Assembly: GCA_000004695.1 (NCBI GenBank)
Contig: CM000151.3
Coordinates: forward strand, 3,904,001-3,968,000
DNA from: Dictyostelium discoideum
Lineage: Eukaryota
Reading direction: 5' to 3'
DNA: 64,000 nucleotides
Made by a program: the position numbers and the translations under genes
Shown: piece by piece, positions 2,723-59,500 of the stretch
Numbering within the stretch: the stretch's first letter is position 1
Layout of the letters: each line of letters begins with the position of its first letter
Notes under the pieces: generated by a model
What the model was told of the DNA's origin: nothing
Seen by the model: only the letters and a program-made list of their open reading frames with translations
Database searches by the model: none

Positions 2723-3671
2723 GGGAGATCTCCCAAATAATTTATTTTTATTTTTTTATTTTTTTTTTTTTAATTCAAGAATTTAAAACAAAGAGACCCA
2801 TAATCTAATATTTTTATTTTATTTTATTTTATTTTTTTAACTAATTGATATAACGATCTATTTCCACTTCTTTGAAAAATTATAAAGTGATGACTTAATT
2901 AATAAATAATTTTTTCCTAAAAAAAAAAAAAATTAATTAAATAATTTCTATTTTCACATTCCTTTTTTGAGACTAAATATAAAAATAGAAATCAACCAGA
3001 TGTACCAAATGAATATTCAAATAATTCAATTATTTAAATTAATGAATTGTTTACTCCAGATTTTATATTGCCAAATAATTTACCTCATTAAATAGCAAAT
3101 TGTCCTGTTTGGTTAATTTGGTTGGTCAATTATAAAGTTACAAAATATTAAATATAAAAAAAAAAAAAAAAATAGTGAATTTTCCCTATTTAGTTATTAC
3201 CAGTTTTATAAATCAGTAAGATATTTTTATTTTTAACACACCAAAGTTATTTCTTTTTTTTTTAGGGAGTTATTTTTCCTTTTTCTGTTTTTTTTTTTTT
3301 TTTTTTTTTTCCTGCGACAACCCCATTTGCATAAAATTTATTTTAAATTGTTAACTTTTTTATTTATTCCTTTTTGAGACCGAATCCGAAAAAAAAAAAA
3401 AAAAAAAAAGAGGCTAGATATTTTAAAACAAAATTGAAAAGGAAATAATAATTTATTAATAAACCAACAAAAAATATAATAATGGAGTATTGGCTATATT
3501 TTAAATTCACTAAAATCTTAAATTCTTAAAGTATAATTCATTTTACAATGGTTGTTGAACAATTAAATTACATATGATAAATTTACTGCTATAAATAAAA
3601 AAAAATAAAAAATAAAAAATAACAATAATTAAAATAAATTTAAAAACTTTAAAAACTATAAAATATTAAAA

Positions 3672-7401: not shown

Positions 7402-10055
7402 TTATGTTGATGGTGTTAGTGGTTTAACTGAAAATAAATTTGGAATTCCACCAATAAATCCGCTCTTTTCTGATGGTTGTTGGTTTGTTGAGGTTGTTGT
7501 CGATCTAGTGGAAATTCCACTAAGGAATCCACTTGGTTTTGGTGTTTCATTAGCATTTGTTGTAGATATTGCTGGTGATGTTGTAGAAGGTTTTTTAGTT
7601 ACTGTAGGTGGTAAAGTTGGTTTTATATTTGAAAATTCACCGATGTATCCACTTTTTTCAGTGGTTTGCGTAATACCTCCAATCAATCCACCAAATGGAG
7701 CATTTCCAGTTGTTGAGGTTGATTGGGTATTTGAGGTTGGTATAAAACCTATTAAACCTGGCAATAGATTGGATGGCGGAGGAGTAGAATGCGTTTGAGT
7801 TGGGGTTGGTGTTTGAGTTTGAGTTTGAGTTGGTGTTTGAGTTTGAGTTGGTGTTGGTGTTTGAGTTTGAGTTGGAGTTTGTGTTTGAGTTTGTATTGGT
7901 TTTGGAGTTTGAGTTTGTGTTGGAGTTTGTGTTTGGGTTTGAGTTGGTGTTGGTGTTTTAGTTTGAGTTGGTTTTGGAGTTTGGGTTTGTGTTGGAGTTT
8001 GTGTTTGAGTTTGAGTTGGTGTTGATGTTTGAGTTTGAGTTGGTGTTTGTGTTTGAGTTTGTGTTTGTGTTTGTGTTTGTGTTGGTGTTTGTGTTGGTGT
8101 TTGTGTTTGAGTTTGTGTTTGTGTTGGTTTTGGAGTTTGTGTTTGTGTTGGAGTTTGTGTTTGTGTTGAATTTTGTGTTTGTGTTTGTGTTTGTGTTTGT
8201 GTTTGTGTTTGTGTTGGTGTTGGTGTTGGTGTGTGGGTTTGTGTTGGTGTTGGAGTTGGAGTTTGTGTTGGAGTTGGAGTTTGTGTTGGAGTCGGAGTTT
8301 GGGTTGGTGTTGGTGTTGGAGTTTGAGTTGTTGGTGTTTGTGTTGGTGTTTGCGTTGGAGTTTGTGTTGGTGTTGGTGTTTGAGTTGATGTTTGTGTTGG
8401 TGTCGAGGTTGGTGTATTGATTCCACCTAAAAAGCCTCCAAAGAAACCAGATGCTTTTGTTGGTGTTGGTGTTGGTGTTGTTGATATTGATGTTGGTGTT
8501 GTTGATATTGATGTTGGTGTTGAGGATGGTGCATTGATACCACCAAAAATGCCTCATAAGAAACCAGATGCTTTTGTTGGTGTTGGTGTTGGTGTTTGAG
8601 TTTGAGTTGGTGTTGGTGTTAGTGTTGGTGTTATTGTTGGGGTTTGAGTTGGGGTTGGTGTTAGTGTTGGTGTTGGTGTTAGGGTTTGAGTTTGTGTTGG
8701 TGTTGGTGCTATTGTTATTGTTGGGGTTTGAGTTTGTCTTTGAGTTTGTGTAGGTGTTGGTGTTTGAGTTGGTGTTGGTGTTGGTGTTTGTGTTTGGGTT
8801 GGTGTTGGTGTATTGTAACCTCCAAAATAGCCTCATAAGAAACCAGATGCTTTAGTTGGAGTGGGTGTTGGTGTTTGTGATTGGGTGGCTGTAGTTGTAG
8901 TTGTAGGTGTTGGTGTTGGTGTAGGTGTATTGTAGCCACCGAAATAGCCTCCTAAAAAACCAGATTCTTTAGTTGGAGTGGGTGTTGGTGTTTGTGATTG
9001 AGTGGGTGTAGTTGTAGGTGTTGGTGTAGGTAGTGGTTGGGTTGGTGAAGGTGTTTGAATAGGTTGTGTTGTACCAGTTGTTGAACCACCAAATAAACCA
9101 CCCAAGAAACTAGATACTGGTTTTTGAGTTGGATTTGGGGTTGGAGTTGAGGTTGGGGTTGGAGTTGATGAAAGTGTTTGTGCGGGTGTTGGTGTTGATC
9201 CACCACCACCTATAAATCCACCTAAAAAACCACTTGATGGTTTCGATGTTGGAGTTGGAGTTAAAGATGGTGTTACACCACCATTTGTACTTCCACCACT
9301 TATGAAACCACCAATGAAACCAGTACCACCACCATTTGGTTGGGTAGGTACAGGGGTTTGAGTTTTAAAACCACCACTACCTCCACCTAATAAACCACCT
9401 AACAAACCTGAAGATCCGCCACCTAATAAAGCACCACCAATTAAATGTGGGATATTATCAACTCCAATTAAACCAGAAGTTGATGTAACACGTGGACATA
9501 ATAATTTTGCTTCAATGATTGCACCAAATAAACCACTAAATAAATTTGATAGACCAAATATTGATTTTTGTACTCTTTCATCCATATTATCTTGATCCAT
9601 AATAATTATACCTTTATTAACTGGAATCCCATCTTTATTAAACAATTCAGGATAACAAAAGTTTCTATATTTTGAACATAATGAAGTAATCTTTACATCA
9701 ATATTATCAACTAAATAGTTTAAATCATAATTTTGATCTGTTAAATAATTTTTAATTCTTGATATAAAATATTTTTGTTTTTCATCTTCATTTAATTTAT
9801 TAAATAATTTTAAAGATACATCATTTTTATCATTCTAAAAATGGAAAATTAAAAATAAAAAAAAATAAAAATTAGAAAAATAATATTAAAAAAAATCTAT
9901 AAGATCCTTATAATAATTACTCTTAAATCAACTATAAATTTATTTCTGTTTATTTCATCAACTTCACTTTCTTCTTGATAGATTTCATTTGCATTAGAAT
10001 TTCCCATAAAAAATATAAAAATAAAAAGTATTACAATTATTTTTAATATTTTCAT
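7402..10055 (-). CDS. Secreted Thr/Pro-rich mucin-like repeat protein (paralogue C of a 3-gene cluster) with two in-frame TGA codons; possible pseudogene or strain polymorphism; 2 exons, about 855 codons
   Basis: Exon 1 is 9921..10055: signal peptide [22 protein letters not shown]...VDLR, donor GTAATT. The intron is 9835..9920. Exon 2 is 7402..9834 in a single frame (coordinate mod 3 = 1). ORFs 8833..9645 and 7402..7764 are parts of that frame, and the 1-kb stretch between them has no Met and so is absent from the track. The frame encodes NDKNDV...CSKYRNFC...[12 protein letters not shown], then about 7 xSGF[LF]GG[YFL][FI]GG motifs separated by (PT)n spacers, then 630 nt of (GTTTGA/GTTGGT)n hexamer coding TQTQTPTPT.... 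TGA codons at 8833-8835 and 8554-8556 both lie in the identical context GGTTTCTTATGAGGC (SGFL*G), where intact units have TTAGGAGGC. Confidence 0.6.
7790..8420. repeat. Imperfect hexanucleotide array (GTTTGA/GTTGGT/GTTTGT)n, about 630 bp, coding Thr/Gln/Pro repeats of the mucin-like gene; all three reverse frames are open
   Basis: Visible periodicity gtttgagtttgagttggtgtt.... This explains track ORFs 7958..8836 (TNTN...), 7752..8426 (HKHQ...) and the plus-strand ORFs 7789..8025, 7968..8420 and 8173..8388 as repeat artefacts. Confidence 0.9.
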
Positions 10056-15323: not shown

Positions 15324-15490
15324 TTTATTTGTTTTTTATTTTGGTTGTCTTGGAATTAATTAAAAAAAAAAAATAATAAAAAAATAAAAAATGAAAATGA
15401 ATTTTTAAAAATAAAAAAAAAATAAAAAAATAAAAAAATATAATTATTTTCTCATTTTTTTTTGGTCTTTGGTAAAGGGTGGTATGATGT

Positions 15491-15612
15491 AAAAATTTCA
15501 GTATTAAATTGGTGAAAAGTAATTTTATGCGGTGCTGGTGTTTGTGAATGTTTTTTTTTATTTTTTTATTTTTATTTTTATTTTTTTATTTTCTATGCAA
15601 CTCCCCATAGTC
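15491..15612. promoter_or_regulatory. Copy 1 of a conserved bipartite non-coding module (about 50-nt block + about 54-nt T-rich spacer + TGCA(A/G)CTCCCC(A/T)TA box) in the QNG1-like/iws1 divergent promoter
   Basis: Block 15491..15540 AAAAATTTCAGTATTAAATTGGTGAAAAGTAATTTTATGCGGTGCTGGTG; box 15594..15612 TATGCAACTCCCCATAGTC. It has about 85% identity to copy 2 at 45051..45171, and the spacing and orientation relative to the flanking genes are the same. The box resembles the DUSE upstream element [AT]CCCA[CT]AA of Dictyostelium small ncRNA genes. Confidence 0.45.
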
Positions 15613-15696
15613 TTGAGAAATTCAGTTTTTTGTTGCTTTTTTTTTTTTTTTTTTTGGGTTTTGGTAAAAATAAGTCAAAATAATAAAAATAATAAA

Positions 15697-16095: not shown

Positions 16096-18142
16096 ATGGA
16101 AACAGAAAATAATAATATTGAAGGAAATGTGGTTGCAACCACAACAGTAGTTGAAAAAGTTCAAGAAGAACAAACTACAACAACAGCAATGAATACACAA
16201 AAAGTCGAAACTACAACAACAGCATCAACTACAGAAGACAATAAAGAATCAATTAATCAACCAACTGATAATACAAATGAAGATGATATTTCAAATAAAT
16301 TACATCATAAAAAAATAATGTTGGAAGAGGATGATGAGGATGATGAGGATGATGAAATTCTTAGTACACAAATACCAGTAGTAAACTCAACTTCACAAGA
16401 GAATAATAATGGTGGTGAATTAAAAGAAAAAACTGATAAAGTAGGTGGTGAAGATAATGCTGAAAAAGAAGTATCACCACCACCACCACCAACTACTACA
16501 ACCACTACAACCACTACAACCACTACATCTGATTCAAATCAAGAAAATAAAAATGAAGAAGGTGAAGAAGAAGAGGATGAAGAAGAAGAGGTTGAAGAAG
16601 AAGAAGTTGAGGGTGATAAAAAAGAAACTAAAGAAGAAAGAAGAGAAAGAAAGAAAGCAAAGAAAGAAGCTAAAAAAGCAAAGAAAGAGGCTAAAAAAGC
16701 AAAGAAAGAAGCAAAGAAATTAGCAGAGAATGAAGAGGAAGGTGGTAATAATAGTAATAGTAATAGTAATAATAATGATAATGAAAATGAAGGTGTAGAA
16801 GTTTCAAAAACTACAGGTGATGTTGATTTTGATGAAGAGACAACAGAACAAACTGAACAAGATGGTGAAGATGGTGAAGAGAAAAAACCAAAAAGATTAG
16901 GTAGAAAGAAATCAAAGAAATCACATAGCACCACAACCACTACAGATGATAAAGAGGATGATGTATTTGATGAGGAGATGACTGCATCACAAGAGGAACC
17001 AAAGAAAAAGAGAAAGAAAGATGAAGATGAAGATTATCAAGATGAAGAGGAAGAACAACCACAAGAAAACAATGAAAATGAAAATGAAAATGGGGGTGAA
17101 GAAGATGAAGATTACAGTAGTGGTGGTGGTAGTAAAAAGAAGAAGAGAAAGTCATCAAAGAAAGAACCAAAAGAACCAAAAGAACCAAAAGAACCAAGAA
17201 AGAAAAAGAAAGAATCAAATGAAAATTCATTCTCAAAAGATTTAGGTAAAAGAAATATTCAAAGAAAGATCGATGTTGGTAAAGTTATAGAGAGTGAGAA
17301 ACCAGCAGTCATTGATTTAATCGATAGAATGAATATCGCTTTCCAAGAGGATAATGTTGCAAACAAACAAAAGAAACCAGCACTCAATAAAACCAAATTA
17401 TTACCAGAGGTGGATGCAATGTTATCAAAGAAAATTCTTCATTCAACTTGTATTTCCAATGGTATCTTTGATGTTATCTCTGAATGGTTAAAACCATTAC
17501 CAGATGGTAGTCAACCAAATCATAAAGTCAAGGAGGTCCTTTTGAAGGGTCTATTTGATCTTCCACCTCCATCAAGTGAAATGGAATGTACTCCAAGAAT
17601 TGGTAGAGCCATCACCCTTATCAAACGTTCGGAGACTGAAACACCATCCATTAAAAAGTTGGCATATGATATCTTTGATAAATGGACTCGTCCTTCTCAA
17701 ATTAGACAAGAGTTTAATGATGTGCATGTTGATCAAAAACAAATTCAGTCACCATTACATTCAAGCGCCAATGGTGATGATAATTTACAACTCTTATCAA
17801 AGAAATATACTGATTATTTACCTGAACATATTAAACATGCAACTGGTTGTAAAAAAGTTACTTTAGATTATGTTAATAGACCAATTAATAGTGGTATTGT
17901 AAGTTTTTTTTTTTAAAAATTAATTTTAAATCCAATTTTTTTTAATGATCCAATAATTTTTTACTAATAATGTTTTTTTTATTTTTATTATTAAAAATTT
18001 TTAGAATCAACATAGACCAGTTGATTCTCCAGTTAGAACAATCAATAGAATCGATAAAGAAATTGCATCAAAATTAAAGAAAACAACATATAAAGGTTCA
18101 CCTCGTGCTCACAATATTAGTGTTGAAGGTCGTCGTATGTTC

Positions 18143-18148
<6 letters not shown>
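16096..18148 (+). CDS. iws1: IWS1/Spn1 transcription elongation factor homologue; 2 exons, 648 aa
   Basis: Exon 1 is 16096..17898 (donor GTAAGT at 17899) and exon 2 is 18005..18148 (acceptor TTTTTAG). The N-terminus is acidic/Thr/Lys low complexity. The C-terminal IWS1/TFIIS-N-type domain reads KKPALNKTKLLPEVDAMLSKKILHSTCISNGIFDVISEWLKPLPDGSQPNHKVKEVLLKGLFDLPPPSSEMECTPRIGRAITLIKRSETETPSIKKLAYDIFDKWTRP. Confidence 0.85.
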
Positions 18149-44811: not shown

Positions 44812-45050
44812 TATATTTTTATTTTTTTTAAATAAAACAATAGATGTGGACGTCGATTTTTAATTATTTATTTTTAAACGTTTTTTGTTTTTAATTTTTT
44901 AATTTTTAATTTTTAAATTGTTTTTTTTTTTTTTTTTTTTTTTTATCAATAGGAATAATCTTTGTTTTGGATAATACTATGGAAATGTTTTGGATAAAAA
45001 GTTAAAATACTAATACAAAAAAAGTTATTGTTTACAGGGTTGGCCGGATT

Positions 45051-45171
45051 TAAAAATTTAGCATTAAAGTGGTGAAAAGTAATATTTTATGCGGCGTAGG
45101 TGAGTTTATAACTCCTTTTTTTTTTTTTTTTTTACTTTTATTTTTTTTTATTTACTTTTATTTCTGCAGCT
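45051..45171. promoter_or_regulatory. Copy 2 of the conserved bipartite module, in the MFS/mppA divergent promoter
   Basis: Block 45051..45103 TAAAAATTTAGCATTAAAGTGGTGAAAAGTAATATTTTATGCGGCGTAGGTG; box 45153..45171 TCTGCAGCTCCCCTTATTG, 50 nt after the block (54 nt in copy 1). It lies 240 bp upstream of the minus-strand MFS ATG and 430 bp upstream of the mppA ATG. Confidence 0.45.
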
Positions 45172-45603
45172 CCCCTTATTGTTTAAATCACACACACACA
45201 TTTTTTAAAAAAAATTATTTTTAATTTAATTTTTTTTTATAAAGAAAAAAAAAAAAATATTAATAAAAAAAATTAAAGAAGATCGAAATTTCAAGAAGTG
45301 AATAGTAATAATAATATTTTTATCTTTCAATCATTATTCTTTGGAAAAAAAAAAAATAAAAAAATAAAAATAAAAAAAAAAAAAATAAAAATTAATCACA
45401 ATAGCGATTTTCGTTTTTTCCAAAGTTTCACTTTTTTTTTTTTTAAAATTTTTTTTTTTTTTATTAATTAAAAAAAGAAATTCAATTTTTTTTTTTTTTT
45501 TTTTTTTGGCAGATCCCAATTTTATTTGCAAAAAAAAAAAAAAAAAAAATTAAATTGTGATTGTCACATAAAAAAAAAAAAAAAAATAAATAAATAAAAT
45601 AAA

Positions 45604-47568
45604 ATGAATATTATTTTTTTAAAAGTCCCCTCAATTTTTAAAAAATTAAATGTGGGAAATATTAAAATTTTAAATGTAAATCAAAATAGCCCATCTATAA
45701 TAGTAAATAGTAATAATACAAAGAGTATTAAAAATCATAATTATTCATCTTTTACAAATAATAACAATAATAATAATAAAAATCAAGTAAATTTAGTTCA
45801 AAATAAATCAATATTATCATCATCATCATCATATAAAGGGAATAATAATAATAATAATAAATTATCATACACAACATCATCAAATAATAATAATAATAAT
45901 AAAATTGAAGAAATTGTTAAATCAACAACAGTTTCACCATTTACACCATTAAATATTTTACATCCAAAATTAGTTGGTGAAAAACTTTATAGTAATGATA
46001 ATGAAGCAAATAATAATCAAAAAGAGTTTAAAGCAGAGATATCAACATTACCAAATGGGATTAGAGTAGTTTCAAAACAAACTCATGAAGGTGTTTGTGC
46101 AATTGGGTTATATATAAATGCAGGTACAAAATATGAGTCACCCCAAGATAGAGGTGTATTTAATTTATTAGAGAAAATGACATTTAAAGAAACAAAAAAC
46201 AATTCCACCTCAGAGATTATTAAAGAGTTGGAAGAGATCTCAATGAATGCAATGGCATCCTCAAGTAGGGAGATGATTAATGTTTCATTGGAAGTGTTAA
46301 GAAAAGATTTAGAATTCGTATTGAGTATCCTATCAGACCAAATTAAATCACCAACCTATTCAGAGGAGGAGCTTAGGGAGCAAATCGAAGTTTGTATTAG
46401 AAACTATGAAATGATTACAAATTCATCATCTGATCAATTAATGACAGAGATTTTAATGGGTGTTGCATTTGGTGATGCCGGTTTAGGCAATTTAGTGATT
46501 GCAACACCTGAACAATACCAAAACATCACTCGTGAGAAACTATTTGATGCATTAAGAAAATATTATGTTGGTAAGAATATAGTTATCAGTGTCACTGGTG
46601 CTGAACATTCACAAGTAATCGAATTGGTTGATAAATATTTCGGTGATATTCCATTCACTCAAAAAGATACCCCATCTGAAGATTCAATAGATAGTACTAT
46701 CACCTATAAAGGTGGTACAGATGCTTGTGTCGCTGGTTTAATTCATAAAAATCATTTAAAATCTCAATTACAATTTTTAATTGAAAAACAACAAAAATTA
46801 AAACAACAACAACAACAACAACAACCACAACCACAAAATTCAAATATAGATGATAATGATAATGAAGAAGAATTATTAAATTTAGAAATTGAACAAACTA
46901 AAATTTCAATTGAACAATTAGAATTACAACAAGTTAAAGAATCATCTTGGATTATTGCATTCCCACATAGTGGTTTATCAACAGTTGCAGAGAATAAAGA
47001 TATTATTAATGGATTGGTATTACAGTCATTGTTGGGTGGTGGCAGTTCTTATTCTACTGGTGGTCCAGGTAAGGGTATGCAAAGTAGATTGAATTTGAAT
47101 GTAGTTTATTCTTCACATAGGGTAAAGAATTGTCATGCATTTTTATTCGTTTTTAATAAAGTTAGTTTATTTGGAATTAGTTTAACAACTCAATCAGGTT
47201 TTCTTCAAGACGGTATCGAATTGGTACTTCAAGAATTGTTAATGTTAAGATCATCAATGACTCAACAAGAATTGGAACGTGCTAAACGTTCTCAAAAATC
47301 ACAAATCCTTCAAAATTTAGAAATGAGAAGTGTTCAATGTGATGATATGGCTAGACATATCCTATCTTTTGGCTCCTATAAATCACCTGAACAAATTTGT
47401 AAACTCATTGATTCCGTCACTTTGGATGATATTAAAAAATTAATTTCAAAACTAGCTCAATCAAATCCTTCCGTAGTTTCAATAGTTGCAAATGAAAATG
47501 AACCAATCTTAACTGCTGAACAATATAATCAAATTGTTAAACAAAATTCTTCAACTTTATTTAAATAA
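45604..47568 (+). CDS. mppA: Mitochondrial processing peptidase alpha subunit (M16 family, non-catalytic); single exon, 654 aa
   Basis: Continuous ORF with an N-terminal Asn/Ser-rich presequence region. M16 domains: LPNGIRVVSKQTHEGVCAIGLYINAGTKYESPQDRGVFNLLEKMTFKETKN...GLGNLVIATPEQYQNITREKLFDALRKYY...; a poly-Gln insert; and a Gly-rich loop LLGGGSSYSTGGPGKGMQSRL characteristic of alpha-MPP. The 654-aa length matches the described Dictyostelium alpha-MPP. Confidence 0.9.
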   Translation: MNIIFLKVPSIFKKLNVGNIKILNVNQNSPSIIVNSNNTKSIKNHNYSSFTNNNNNNNKNQVNLVQNKSILSSSSSYKGNNNNNNKLSYTTSSNNNNNNKIEEIVKSTTVSPFTPLNILHPKLVGEKLYSNDNEANNNQKEFKAEISTLPNGIRVVSKQTHEGVCAIGLYINAGTKYESPQDRGVFNLLEKMTFKETKNNSTSEIIKELEEISMNAMASSSREMINVSLEVLRKDLEFVLSILSDQIKSPTYSEEELREQIEVCIRNYEMITNSSSDQLMTEILMGVAFGDAGLGNLVIATPEQYQNITREKLFDALRKYYVGKNIVISVTGAEHSQVIELVDKYFGDIPFTQKDTPSEDSIDSTITYKGGTDACVAGLIHKNHLKSQLQFLIEKQQKLKQQQQQQQPQPQNSNIDDNDNEEELLNLEIEQTKISIEQLELQQVKESSWIIAFPHSGLSTVAENKDIINGLVLQSLLGGGSSYSTGGPGKGMQSRLNLNVVYSSHRVKNCHAFLFVFNKVSLFGISLTTQSGFLQDGIELVLQELLMLRSSMTQQELERAKRSQKSQILQNLEMRSVQCDDMARHILSFGSYKSPEQICKLIDSVTLDDIKKLISKLAQSNPSVVSIVANENEPILTAEQYNQIVKQNSSTLFK

Positions 47569-48987
47569 ATTAGAATAGTAATAAATAATTAATAATTAAT
47601 AAATAAAAATAAAAATAAAAATTAATAAAAATTTCATTACTAGTAGTTAGTATTTTTATTTATTATATTTGAATGATATCTATTAAATAAATACAAATAA
47701 TATTTATAATAATAATATAAACAATTCCCTTTATTATTATTTTTATTTTTTTTGAAATTTATTTTTAATTTATTATTTATTAATCTAAACAATTGAATTA
47801 TTGGGTTTTATTGGTTTTGAATGAAATAAAATAAAAAATAAGATATAATTTAAGATACAAAACACAGAATTTCATATTGGATAAATTTAAATCAGATTTA
47901 AATTGTTTTGTTTTTTTGGGGGATACTTTGAATATAAATATATCTTTTGATCAAGACATCAGTTTTTTTTTTTAAAAAACTCTCCTTACACACCCCACTT
48001 CAATTTATTATTTTAAGTTTATTTTTTTTTTTTTTTTTTTTTTATAATTATTTTTTTTTTTTTTTGGCTAAATAAATTATTCTGTTTTAAATTATTAAAA
48101 TATTAATAATGATAAACTAATTAAATAAAAAATAAACGTTAAAATTGTGAGCAGAAATTATGAATTTGGTTTGAAAATATAAAAAATATTAGAATAAATG
48201 CAATTATTAGACATCTTCAAAGTGAAAGAAAAAGAGATTAAAATATTTCAGATTTCAACAGATAATAAAATTTTTTTTATATTGACTTTCATTTAAAAAA
48301 AAGTTATTATCAATAACAAAAAATGAATATTATTTGAAAAGGTTAAACAATTAATTTATTATTTAAAAAAAATGTTAAATAAAATGGGTTTCTAAAAATT
48401 AGAAAATTGAACTGAAGATATCCAAATGAATATCAGCATTCAATAAACCAAGTACTTGATTACATACATTTAATAAAAAGCAAATTTTAAATTATAAGCA
48501 ATAATTTATAATTTATAAATTATTTAATTTAATAAATGTTATTGGAAAAAAGATAAAAAATAAATTTAAAAAATTAATTTAATTTAACCTCTTTATTTTA
48601 AAAAAAAAATATATAAATAATTAAAAAAAAATTCTATAGAAACTATAATCAATTTATTGATTTTATATGATTATAGTTTATAAATTGGCAAATTTACTTT
48701 TTTAATTTTTTAAAAGTAAAGATTTATAATTTTTCTTGGTAAAAAAAAAAGTAAAAATAAAAATAAAAAAATTTAAAAAACGTTAATGTATTTATCTCCA
48801 TTTATTTATTTATTTGAGTGAGTGGTTATTTTTACTTGGTTCATCAAAAAATAAATTAATTAAAAAAATATAAAAAAAAAACTAATTAAACACAAAAAAA
48901 CAAAAAAATAAAAAAAAAAAAATTAAAAATAATTTTAACAGTTTTTTTAATTAAGTTTATTTATCTATATTTTTTTAAATAATTAAA

Positions 48988-49791
48988 ATGATAACAAAAG
49001 TGGAATATTTAATAAACCCAGATACCCAATTTAAAAATGGACCCATTTCAATTATTCTTGGTTATGCAGGAAGTACACTCAGAGTATTAAAAAATTATGC
49101 AAAAATTTGGCATGACAGAGGATTTAATGCTATTTTATTACCACATTCAATGTATGTAAAAAAAAATTAATAATATTATAAATTGGAAAAATTAAAATAA
49201 AGAATTCTAATTCTTTATTTTTTTTTTTTTTTTTTTTTTTTAAAAAGTGATACTTCTTGTGTATTTAATGAAGAAATGGAATTAATTATTTTTAAATATT
49301 TAGAAGATTATTTTAAAAATAAAAACAACAAAAGAATGATTTGTTTTCATGTACTATCAGCTGGATCAATGTTTTTAGGAAAATTACTTGAATCTATGAA
49401 AAAAAAAAATGAATTTAATTATTTATTTAGTTTAATAAAAGGAGTGGTTTATGATAGTGCACCATTGTTAGATGAAAATGATTCATTATGTGGTACATTA
49501 TTAGCTGCTGGTGTAAATATTTTTAATATTGATGAAAATTTCGTACAAACTAAAATTGATAAATTATTTTTAGAATCATTTTTTCATATATGGAAAAAAA
49601 TGACAACGATCTATTATTCCCAATTAATTTCACCATTAAATAAATGGCCACATTTAATTATATATTCACCAAATGATTTCGTTATTTTATCAATTTATGA
49701 TTTTATTGATCAAATTAAATTAATTCCGGGAATGAAAGAATTTAAAGATTTTAAGAATAACAATGAAAATAATTATAATAATAATAATATT

Positions 49792-49863
<72 letters not shown>

Positions 49864-50022
49864 TTTTTAAATAGTTTATACATTATTGAAAAAGTTTTCC
49901 AAAGTGAACATTGTAAACACCTCCTAAAAAATCCAAAAGAATATATTGAATCAGTTAATCAATTAATTGATTTAGCATTTTTAAATGAAAAAAATCAATT
50001 ACAATCATTAATTAAATTATAA
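48988..50022 (+). CDS. TMEM53/DUF829 family alpha/beta-hydrolase-fold protein; 2 exons, 312 aa
   Basis: Exon 1 is 48988..49151 (MITKVEYLINPDTQFKNGPISIILGYAGSTLRVLKNYAKIWHDRGFNAILLPHS+AT, phase 2, donor GTATGT). Exon 2 is 49248..50022 (I DTSCVF...MICFHVLSAGSMFLG...VVYDSAPLL...WPHLIIYSPNDFVILS...N27...*). Matches to human TMEM53: [52 protein letters not shown] and WPELYLYSRADEVVL. Confidence 0.7.
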
Positions 50023-59050: not shown

Positions 59051-59500
59051 ATTAATTTATTAGAAAAAAAAAAAAAAAAAAAAAAAAAAAACATAAACAT
59101 AAAAATAATAATAATAATAATAATTATAATAATAAAAATAAAAATATCAAATCAACAAATAATGTACTTTAAAAATAAAAAAATAAAAAATAAAATATTT
59201 ATTCCGAAAATTTATATTAAGTTTGTTTATTGTTTTTTTTATTTTTTTTTTAAAATAACTAATTTTCCATAAAACTATTGTCAAATTTTCAATGTGGTTA
59301 ATTACCCACAAACTTTTTTTTTATTTTTTTTATTTTTCAGTAATAATTTAATTTTTGGAGAAGATGTGGAAAATAACAAACCACAACACAAGGCAATTTT
59401 TTTTTTTAAATAATTATTTTAAAACAATATAAATATTTGTGGTTTTTGTTTTAATTTTGTTAAATTTTTTTATAAAAAAAAATAAAATCATATATCAAAT

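Follow-up and report, generated by a model that had tools for sequence, protein, structure and literature searches.

A short interspersed element as the probable source of a bipartite non-coding module in two divergent promoters of Dictyostelium discoideum

Two divergent promoter regions within a 64,000-nucleotide stretch of chromosome 2 in the Dictyostelium discoideum AX4 genome (positions 3,904,001 to 3,968,000 of contig CM000151.3, assembly GCA_000004695.1; hereafter the window) carry the same bipartite module, and we consider it probable that they hold copies of a short, non-coding, non-autonomous and clade-specific interspersed element that is now decaying. A short dispersed repeat had been the last of three candidate explanations offered in the original prediction, and it is the one that gains support here, from a target-site duplication, an empty site in sister species and a third member of the family elsewhere. 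The insertion, the duplication of its target, the empty sites, the occupancy of at least three independent loci and the lack of constraint are all directly observed.

Extent and organization of the two copies

When the AT-rich window (G+C 22.5%) is compared with itself using blastn with low-complexity filtering, and tandem, palindromic and low-complexity matches are set aside, the top match pairs 15486-15532 with 45047-45094 (88% over 49 nt, E about 9e-6). Re-alignment confirmed that two non-coding blocks lie at the predicted positions in the same order and orientation. Their similarity is also non-random, as had been claimed: it is the best non-repeat match in the window and is accompanied by a second box at matching spacing. 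The blocks, at 15475-15606 (copy 1) and 45035-45175 (copy 2), have in common a G-containing 5' block with the pattern TAAAAATTT..ATTAAA.TGGTGAAAAGTAAT(AT)TTTATGCGG..GGTG, a T-rich, low-complexity middle and a 3' box, TGCARCTCCCC; the T-rich tract that separates the 5' block from this box, TGCA(A/G)CTCCCC, measures about 55-60 nt. The 14-mer version of the 3' box, TGCARCTCCCCWTA, has exact matches in the window only at 15596-15609 and 45165-45178, and about 0.4 matches would be expected there by chance even with 2 mismatches allowed. Neither mismatch-tolerant pattern searches nor an nhmmer profile found a third copy in the window, the whole-window repeat search returned low-complexity families only, and a literature search with the exact element sequences on both strands gave irrelevant matches only. 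Any repeat search of this window is dominated by a long imperfect coding tandem array at 7670-8900 (minus-strand ORFs 7958-8836 and 8833-9600), which has a 12/18-nt periodicity and is built of GTTTGAGTTGGT-type units.

The limits of the module needed some revision. The 5' block stands as a common feature, and its homology begins about 16-18 nt farther upstream than first proposed, at (A/C)AGGGT(T)GG, that is, at 15475 and 45035. The second box likewise stands, with the homology ending at CTCCCC in both copies (15606 in copy 1, 45175 in copy 2); the TTAT that had been included in the box of copy 2, and that also contributed to its proposed resemblance to the DUSE promoter element, is part of a flanking target-site duplication and lies outside the element. 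The element is thereby about 132-141 bp long. Its homology stops sharply at both ends, and the genes beside copy 1 and copy 2 are unrelated. The distances to the neighbouring genes had been predicted about right: the 5' end of the element lies 152 bp (copy 1) and 224 bp (copy 2) from the minus-strand ATGs, and its 3' end lies 490 bp (copy 1) and 429 bp (copy 2) from the plus-strand ATGs.

Copy 1 (AAGGGTGG...CAACTCCCC; 15475-15606, plus strand, boundaries +/-3 nt; aligned with copy 2, nhmmer E 7.6e-13) is situated between a Q_salvage/QNG1-like gene (minus strand, ATG about 15323) and iws1 (plus strand, ATG 16096). It can be divided, all on the plus strand, into sub-block 1a (AAGGGTGGTATGATGTAAAAATTTCAGTATTAAATTGGTGAAAAG, 15475-15519), which is common to all family members; sub-block 1b (ATGCGGTGCTGGTGTTTGTG, 15527-15546), which aligns with copy 2, with the D. 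cf. discoideum orthologue of that copy and with the third family member, where it reads CTGGTGGGTTTGTC; an internal T-rich low-complexity tract (15547-15593) whose length and sequence vary among copies and strains; and a 3' terminal box (TATGCAACTCCCC, 15594-15606) defined by the alignment with copy 2 and by pattern matches. Copy 2 (CAGGGTTGG...CTGCAGCTCCCC; 45035-45175, 141 bp, plus strand; identified by alignment with copy 1 and by nhmmer) has the same parts, with 1a at 45035-45079, 1b at 45089-45107, the T-rich tract at 45108-45162 and the 3' box at 45163-45175. It lies between a gene for an MFS transporter (minus strand, ATG about 44811) and mppA (plus strand, ATG 45604), the latter being a 654-aa ORF (45604-47568) that is 100% identical to the AX4 mppA protein. 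Sub-blocks 1a and 1b are separated by as little as about 7 nt and as much as about 85 nt, depending on the copy. A 2-nt indel between the copies shifts the reading frame and thus excludes coding potential.

The iws1 gene next to copy 1 (16096-18148, plus strand) has an apparent 106-nt intron, running from GTAAGT at 17899 to TAG at 18004, and a 648-aa product. Neither this spliced 648-aa model nor the unspliced 606-aa ORF exactly matches any protein on record, so the annotated iws1 model must differ somewhere. Nine other ORFs of the window likewise have no exact match on record.

Filled and empty sites among strains and related species

We compared the MFS/mppA locus of AX4 with those of two other D. 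discoideum assemblies (L006 and L007), D. cf. discoideum (L001, GCA_054859205), D. citrinum, D. dimigraforme and D. firmibasis. The divergent MFS(-)/mppA(+) arrangement is kept in every one of these loci, and the mppA homologues form a graded series from the D. discoideum assemblies through D. cf. discoideum, D. citrinum and D. dimigraforme to D. firmibasis. Copy 2 is present in AX4, L006, L007 and D. cf. discoideum; in a five-species alignment the whole 141-bp segment is a gap in D. citrinum, D. dimigraforme and D. firmibasis, with the flanking footprints conserved.

Within the strains that carry it, copy 2 is far from intact. Both L006 and L007 have a 48-nt internal deletion that takes out ATTAAAGTGGTGAAAAGTAAT..TATGC, so that the supposed core of the module at this copy, GGTGAAAAGTAAT..TATGCGG, is deleted in two D. 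discoideum strains; box 2 of the same two strains is mostly lost, being reduced to GTCCCC. In the D. cf. discoideum copy, 22 nt are inserted into block 1 after GGTGAAAAGT and box 2 has decayed. The identity of copy 2 to AX4 in the other strains is 0.84-0.87 with gaps ignored and 0.46-0.69 with gaps counted, whereas that of the left-flank footprint is 0.75-0.96; the element is no better conserved than the right-flank intergenic DNA. The loss of the core in two strains indicates that it is not under constraint at copy 2, and the identity at or below that of the flanks, together with the internal deletions, characterizes this copy as a lineage-specific insertion without detectable constraint.

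The ends of copy 2 bear the mark of integration. A perfect 10-bp direct repeat, TTATTGTTTA, is present on its left (45025-45034) and on its right (45176-45185), abutting exactly both limits of the homology between copies 1 and 2. Comparably complex exact 10-mer repeats spaced by 100-200 bp occur at about 55 loci in the window, one coding tandem array excluded, and at this background rate the chance of such a repeat at the copy 2 boundaries is P about 1e-3. Nine to ten of the 10 positions of the repeat are kept in the assemblies L001, L006 and L007. The empty site of D. citrinum has a single TTATTGTTAT, with the same CA-rich stretch after it. Copy 2 and the D. citrinum locus together present the classical signature of a filled and an empty site, with integration at a staggered cut. 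The repeat can alternatively be read as a 5-bp duplication, TTGTT, with TA and TTA forming part of the element (TTGTT-TA..TTA-TTGTT), since copies 1 and 3 likewise have TA before their 5' ends; the 10-bp duplication is the more parsimonious reading of copy 2.

For copy 1 the orthologous comparison covers D. firmibasis only: a search with iws1 for homologues was swamped by low complexity, and one with the Q_salvage exon led to one distant match. In the Q_salvage(-)/iws1(+) intergenic region of D. firmibasis copy 1 is absent and both flanks are recognisable (TTTTCTCAT and AGAAATNCANTT). Between the left flank TTTTCTCAT and the right flank AGAAATACAATT..T-run, 17 nt replaces the AX4 element and its immediate surroundings. 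A weak and possibly decayed target-site duplication may be read from the sequence around copy 1, with GTCTTTGG on the left (15465-15472) and GTCTTGAG on the right (15610-15617); the two match at 6/8 positions and would require the element to have the ends TA...ATA, which are slightly different from those implied by the 10-bp reading of copy 2. The empty site in D. firmibasis has a single stretch, GGTGATTTTTAAG, that is related to GTCTTTGG/GTCTTGAG.

A search of the window and seven other loci (about 218 kb) with blastn and an nhmmer profile of block 1a recovered, beyond the AX4 copies and the orthologues of copy 2, one extra match in D. cf. discoideum (L001:13381-13431, minus strand, E 8.6e-13). 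This third family member, at L001:13261-13432 on the minus strand of GCA_054859205, is located 3.4 kb past the mppA start and is not the orthologue of either copy in AX4; about 315 bp from its 5' end there is a gene whose transcription runs away from that end. It reads TATAAGGGTGGTCCGATATATAAATTTAAGGATTAAATTGGTGAAAG, followed by about 85 nt of unrelated AT-rich sequence, the 1b homologue CTGGTGGGTTTGTC, which sits inside a GTGGC..GCCAC hairpin, and then T7; no 3' box (box 2) is found in it. It is absent from AX4, L006 and L007 in the corresponding region, where the DNA is too divergent for an empty site to be defined. The three independent loci share their 5' end within 3 nt, and this evidence for a family comes from a small sample, about 218 kb of Dictyostelium DNA. 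About 88 kb of sequence from D. citrinum, D. dimigraforme and D. firmibasis yielded no member. A scan of metagenomes with a 23-base block-1a pattern gave a single match, at 2294-2318 of Ga0075152_10012697 (L008), which we dismiss as chance; it has no flanking similarity and probably lies in coding sequence of an AT-rich contig (about 29% G+C).

The region downstream of mppA is variable in other ways too. The DUF829-family genes located there (47568-50022 in the window) number one to four copies, their arrangement differs between AX4 and the other assemblies and species, and the intergenic DNA is largely unalignable between AX4 and the other assemblies.

Regulatory, RNA-gene and copying explanations

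The headline claim of the original prediction was that of a shared cis-regulatory module, which would be kept by selection in two divergent promoters, for instance as GGTG/GGGTGG factor sites together with a T-run/initiator. We regard this as very unlikely, and the comparison of the loci gives it no support. The orthologous promoters of three related species do without the element yet keep other footprints, strains of one species complex have lost the core and show an eroded box 2, and the element evolves no slower than the intergenic DNA around it. What speaks for regulation is chiefly the setting, in that the two AX4 copies share an orientation and a location in divergent promoter regions and the third copy is also near a gene transcribed away from its 5' end; moreover, the element contains several GGTG(G) motifs, and its succession of a T-run and G/C-containing sequence is reminiscent of published Dictyostelium start sites (PMC6161686). 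However, the like orientation of two copies is a 50% chance event, and the matching orientation and promoter position are unremarkable at n=2, with long intergenic regions here being mostly divergent promoters. The location most likely reflects where a gene-dense genome tolerates insertions, and if the element now affects the neighbouring genes at all, it would do so incidentally.

In the MFS/mppA intergenic region several footprints are kept across AX4, D. cf. discoideum, D. citrinum, D. dimigraforme and D. firmibasis, and the remainder is unalignable. They lie in the window at 44978-45009 (TATGGAAATGTTTTGGATAAAAAGTTAAAATA), 45275-45291 (AAAGAAGATCGAAATT), 45399-45419 (CAATAGCGATTTTCGTTTTTT), 45509-45523 (GCAGATCCCAATTTT) and 45552-45561 (AAATTGTGAT); those found in all five species of the alignment read TATGGAAATGTTTTGGATAAAAAGTTAAAATA, AAAGAAGATCA, CAATAGCGATTTTCGTTTTTT, GCAGATTTCAATTTT and AAATTGTGAT. 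Judged by sequence conservation, these footprints would be better cis-regulatory candidates than the reported module.

The second candidate had been a small ncRNA gene family, suggested by a likeness of the 3' box to DUSE. As a pol III or DUSE-type family with fast gain and loss, possibly by retroposition (SINE-like), it would have block 1 as the RNA itself, conserved in its 5' domain and variable in the middle, with a hairpin or G-rich part on the 3' side and the T-run as terminator. A T-run does come after block 1b in every copy, preceded by a small hairpin in copy 2 (GAGTT..AACTC) and in the third copy (GTGGC..GCCAC); the 1a-1b length is variable, as in some RNA families, and Class I RNA genes turn over quickly in dictyostelids (PMC7919456). 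Like the DUSE-dependent genes for Class I RNAs and snRNAs, which are multi-copy and lineage-variable, the element has a C-rich box, CTCCCC, about 55-60 nt from a conserved block. DUSE itself, however, has the form [AT]CCCA[CT]AA and is positioned about 60 nt upstream of the transcript start or TGTG box (Kjellin et al. 2021, PMC7919456), whereas the box of the element is off-consensus and downstream of the conserved block. The sequence of box 2 is CCCCATAG in copy 1; in copy 2 it is CCCCTTAT, whose final four bases belong to the target duplication, and neither version fits DUSE. There is no DUSE or CCCA motif upstream of block 1 in either copy, and no conservation between the two copies about 60 nt downstream of box 2.

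Nor do the other hallmarks of an RNA gene appear. Rfam gave no match, whether for the whole window at the gathering threshold, for both copy regions even at E<=10 or for locus L001. The two copies have no common fold (MFE z-scores on the plus strand -2.25 and +0.28; the minus strand barely folds), and the TGTG box, 11-nt motif and terminal stem of Class I RNAs are absent from the element. T-runs come after almost anything in the D. discoideum genome, the core is deleted in two strains, and the duplicated target brackets a single unit made up of block 1, the T tract and box 2, an arrangement that is not accounted for by a simple RNA gene. The DUSE-based proposal thus finds no support, and an ncRNA gene family seems to us quite improbable. 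Three further candidates for individual copies were rejected. The stretch GGGTGGTCCGAT in the third copy resembles the 5' end of a Y-RNA; it has no complementary 3' strand and no Rfam match. A box C/D snoRNA is suggested by an ATGATGT present in copy 1 only, with no D box. A short intron, GGTG-GTGAGT...CTGCAG, could be drawn in copy 2; copy 1 has no matching splice sites, and the whole unit is an insertion.

Exact DUSE matches do occur elsewhere in the window, at 2796, 10002 and 59304 only. At 59304-59410 (plus strand) the DUSE ACCCACAA (59304-59311) has a TGTG-box-like AGATGTGG (59362-59369) 58 nt further on, past which a short G/C-containing stretch, GGAAAATAACAAACCACAACACAAGGCAA, ends in a T11 run; this layout fits what would be predicted of a DUSE-driven small RNA gene, and the region has no Rfam match at the gathering threshold. 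At 2796-2960 (plus strand) a C-box-like GTGATGA (2888-2894) follows the DUSE ACCCATAA (2796-2803) at a distance of about 90 nt; there is no evident D box and no Rfam match, and the region may be a small RNA gene on the strength of these motifs.

A different kind of explanation would dispense with a mobile family and invoke one or two non-transposon copying events, such as templated insertion in double-strand-break repair or ectopic conversion. The known loci number only three, clear terminal inverted repeats and an A-tail are lacking, and the apparent target duplications are of unequal length between copies, all of which would agree with such events. We nevertheless think them unlikely: random fragment capture would not predict a 5' boundary common to three loci within 3 nt, and a clean 10-bp target duplication is typical of staggered-cut integration. 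Chance similarity in AT-rich DNA, for which nothing but the low complexity of the surrounding DNA can be said, is effectively refuted by the best non-repeat match of the window (E about 9e-6) and the second box at matching spacing; segmental duplication of a promoter region is contradicted by the sharp ends of the homology and by the unrelated flanks and genes. We assign these two readings together a negligible probability. One recent segmental duplication of both loci, which had been named as the scenario that would overturn the original prediction, did not take place, as the homology stops at the element ends and the genes are unrelated.

Finally, the element might be a mobile module of the D. 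discoideum clade that is itself functional, being either transcribed (a SINE-like small RNA unit whose conserved 5' head would be followed by a variable insert and, at the 3' side, by a hairpin and T-run) or promoter-bearing (a portable set of GGTG(G) sites with a T-run start site). Were this true, the spread of a promoter or RNA module would have rewired the QNG1-like/iws1 and MFS/mppA divergent promoters. We hold it to be a rather doubtful proposition, and at copy 2 the deletions carried by natural strains speak against co-option for a regulatory or RNA role.

Proposed origin and comparison with known elements

Under the preferred reading as a decaying interspersed element, the element would have entered AT-rich intergenic DNA of the D. 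discoideum lineage after its split from D. citrinum. At copy 2 the insertion would have duplicated 10 bp of target, TTATTGTTTA, and a duplication of this kind suggests a staggered cut that was then filled in. Since the element has no coding capacity, the cutting enzyme would have been supplied in trans and the element would be non-autonomous; its mobility via a transposase or integrase is our inference. After insertion the copies would have decayed at a roughly neutral intergenic rate, with large internal deletions and insertions arising in some strains and the internal T-rich tract drifting as any simple sequence does. An element made of a G-containing 5' part, a drifting T-rich tract and a 3' box is thus expected to leave two conserved boxes around an unalignable middle.

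The case carries a caution, in that a crisp block common to two promoters mimics regulation where intergenic DNA is nearly unalignable, and here the block is accounted for by a young insertion. The element may be missing from the catalogue of Dictyostelium transposons, whose DNA elements comprise the Tdd, DDT and thug families (PMC5633606), and its presence or absence could be used as a marker within the D. discoideum species complex.

Lacking a convincing terminal inverted repeat, an A-tail and internal pol III boxes, the element cannot be placed neatly in any superfamily. The inverted-repeat similarity is confined to about 5/7 terminal bases, TA(C/A/T)A(G/A)GG against TA(A/T)GGGG (the reverse complement of the 3' end), and no inverted-repeat similarity was found past the terminal 7 bases. 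To our knowledge no SINE has been described in Dictyostelium. The element is like SINEs in its similar size, in target duplications of variable length and in having a conserved 5' head followed by a simple-sequence region. It differs from them in having no A/B boxes and no similarity to tRNA, 7SL or 5S RNA; a stretch of copy 2 that resembles an A box is wrongly spaced and not shared by copy 1, and a tRNA scan with ARAGORN found nothing. Moreover, its simple tract is internal and T-rich on the head-bearing strand, with no 3' A-tail beside the duplication, the element ending in ..CTCCCC on the plus strand and in ..CCCTG on the minus strand.

Among the DNA transposons, hAT elements typically have termini of the form YARNG and 8-bp duplications. 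The 5' ends CAGGG, TAAGG and TAAAG of the element would fit YARNG, and its 3' end fits poorly. Tdd-4 and Tdd-5 of D. discoideum (Ginger2 group) are 3.8 kb long and have inverted terminal repeats of 260-297 bp and 5-bp target duplications (PMC2836005). The alternative 5-bp reading of the copy 2 repeat resembles the latter, whereas the element is 141 bp long and has no long inverted repeat. With MITEs it shares a small size (about 140 bp), the lack of coding capacity, an AT-rich interior, a target duplication, dispersed intergenic copies and presence or absence between closely related species; it departs from them in terminal inverted repeats of at best about 5/7 nt. A MITE-like DNA transposon, for which the small size, the target duplication and the AT-rich targets speak, is favoured over a retroposon, since neither end of the element carries an A-tail.
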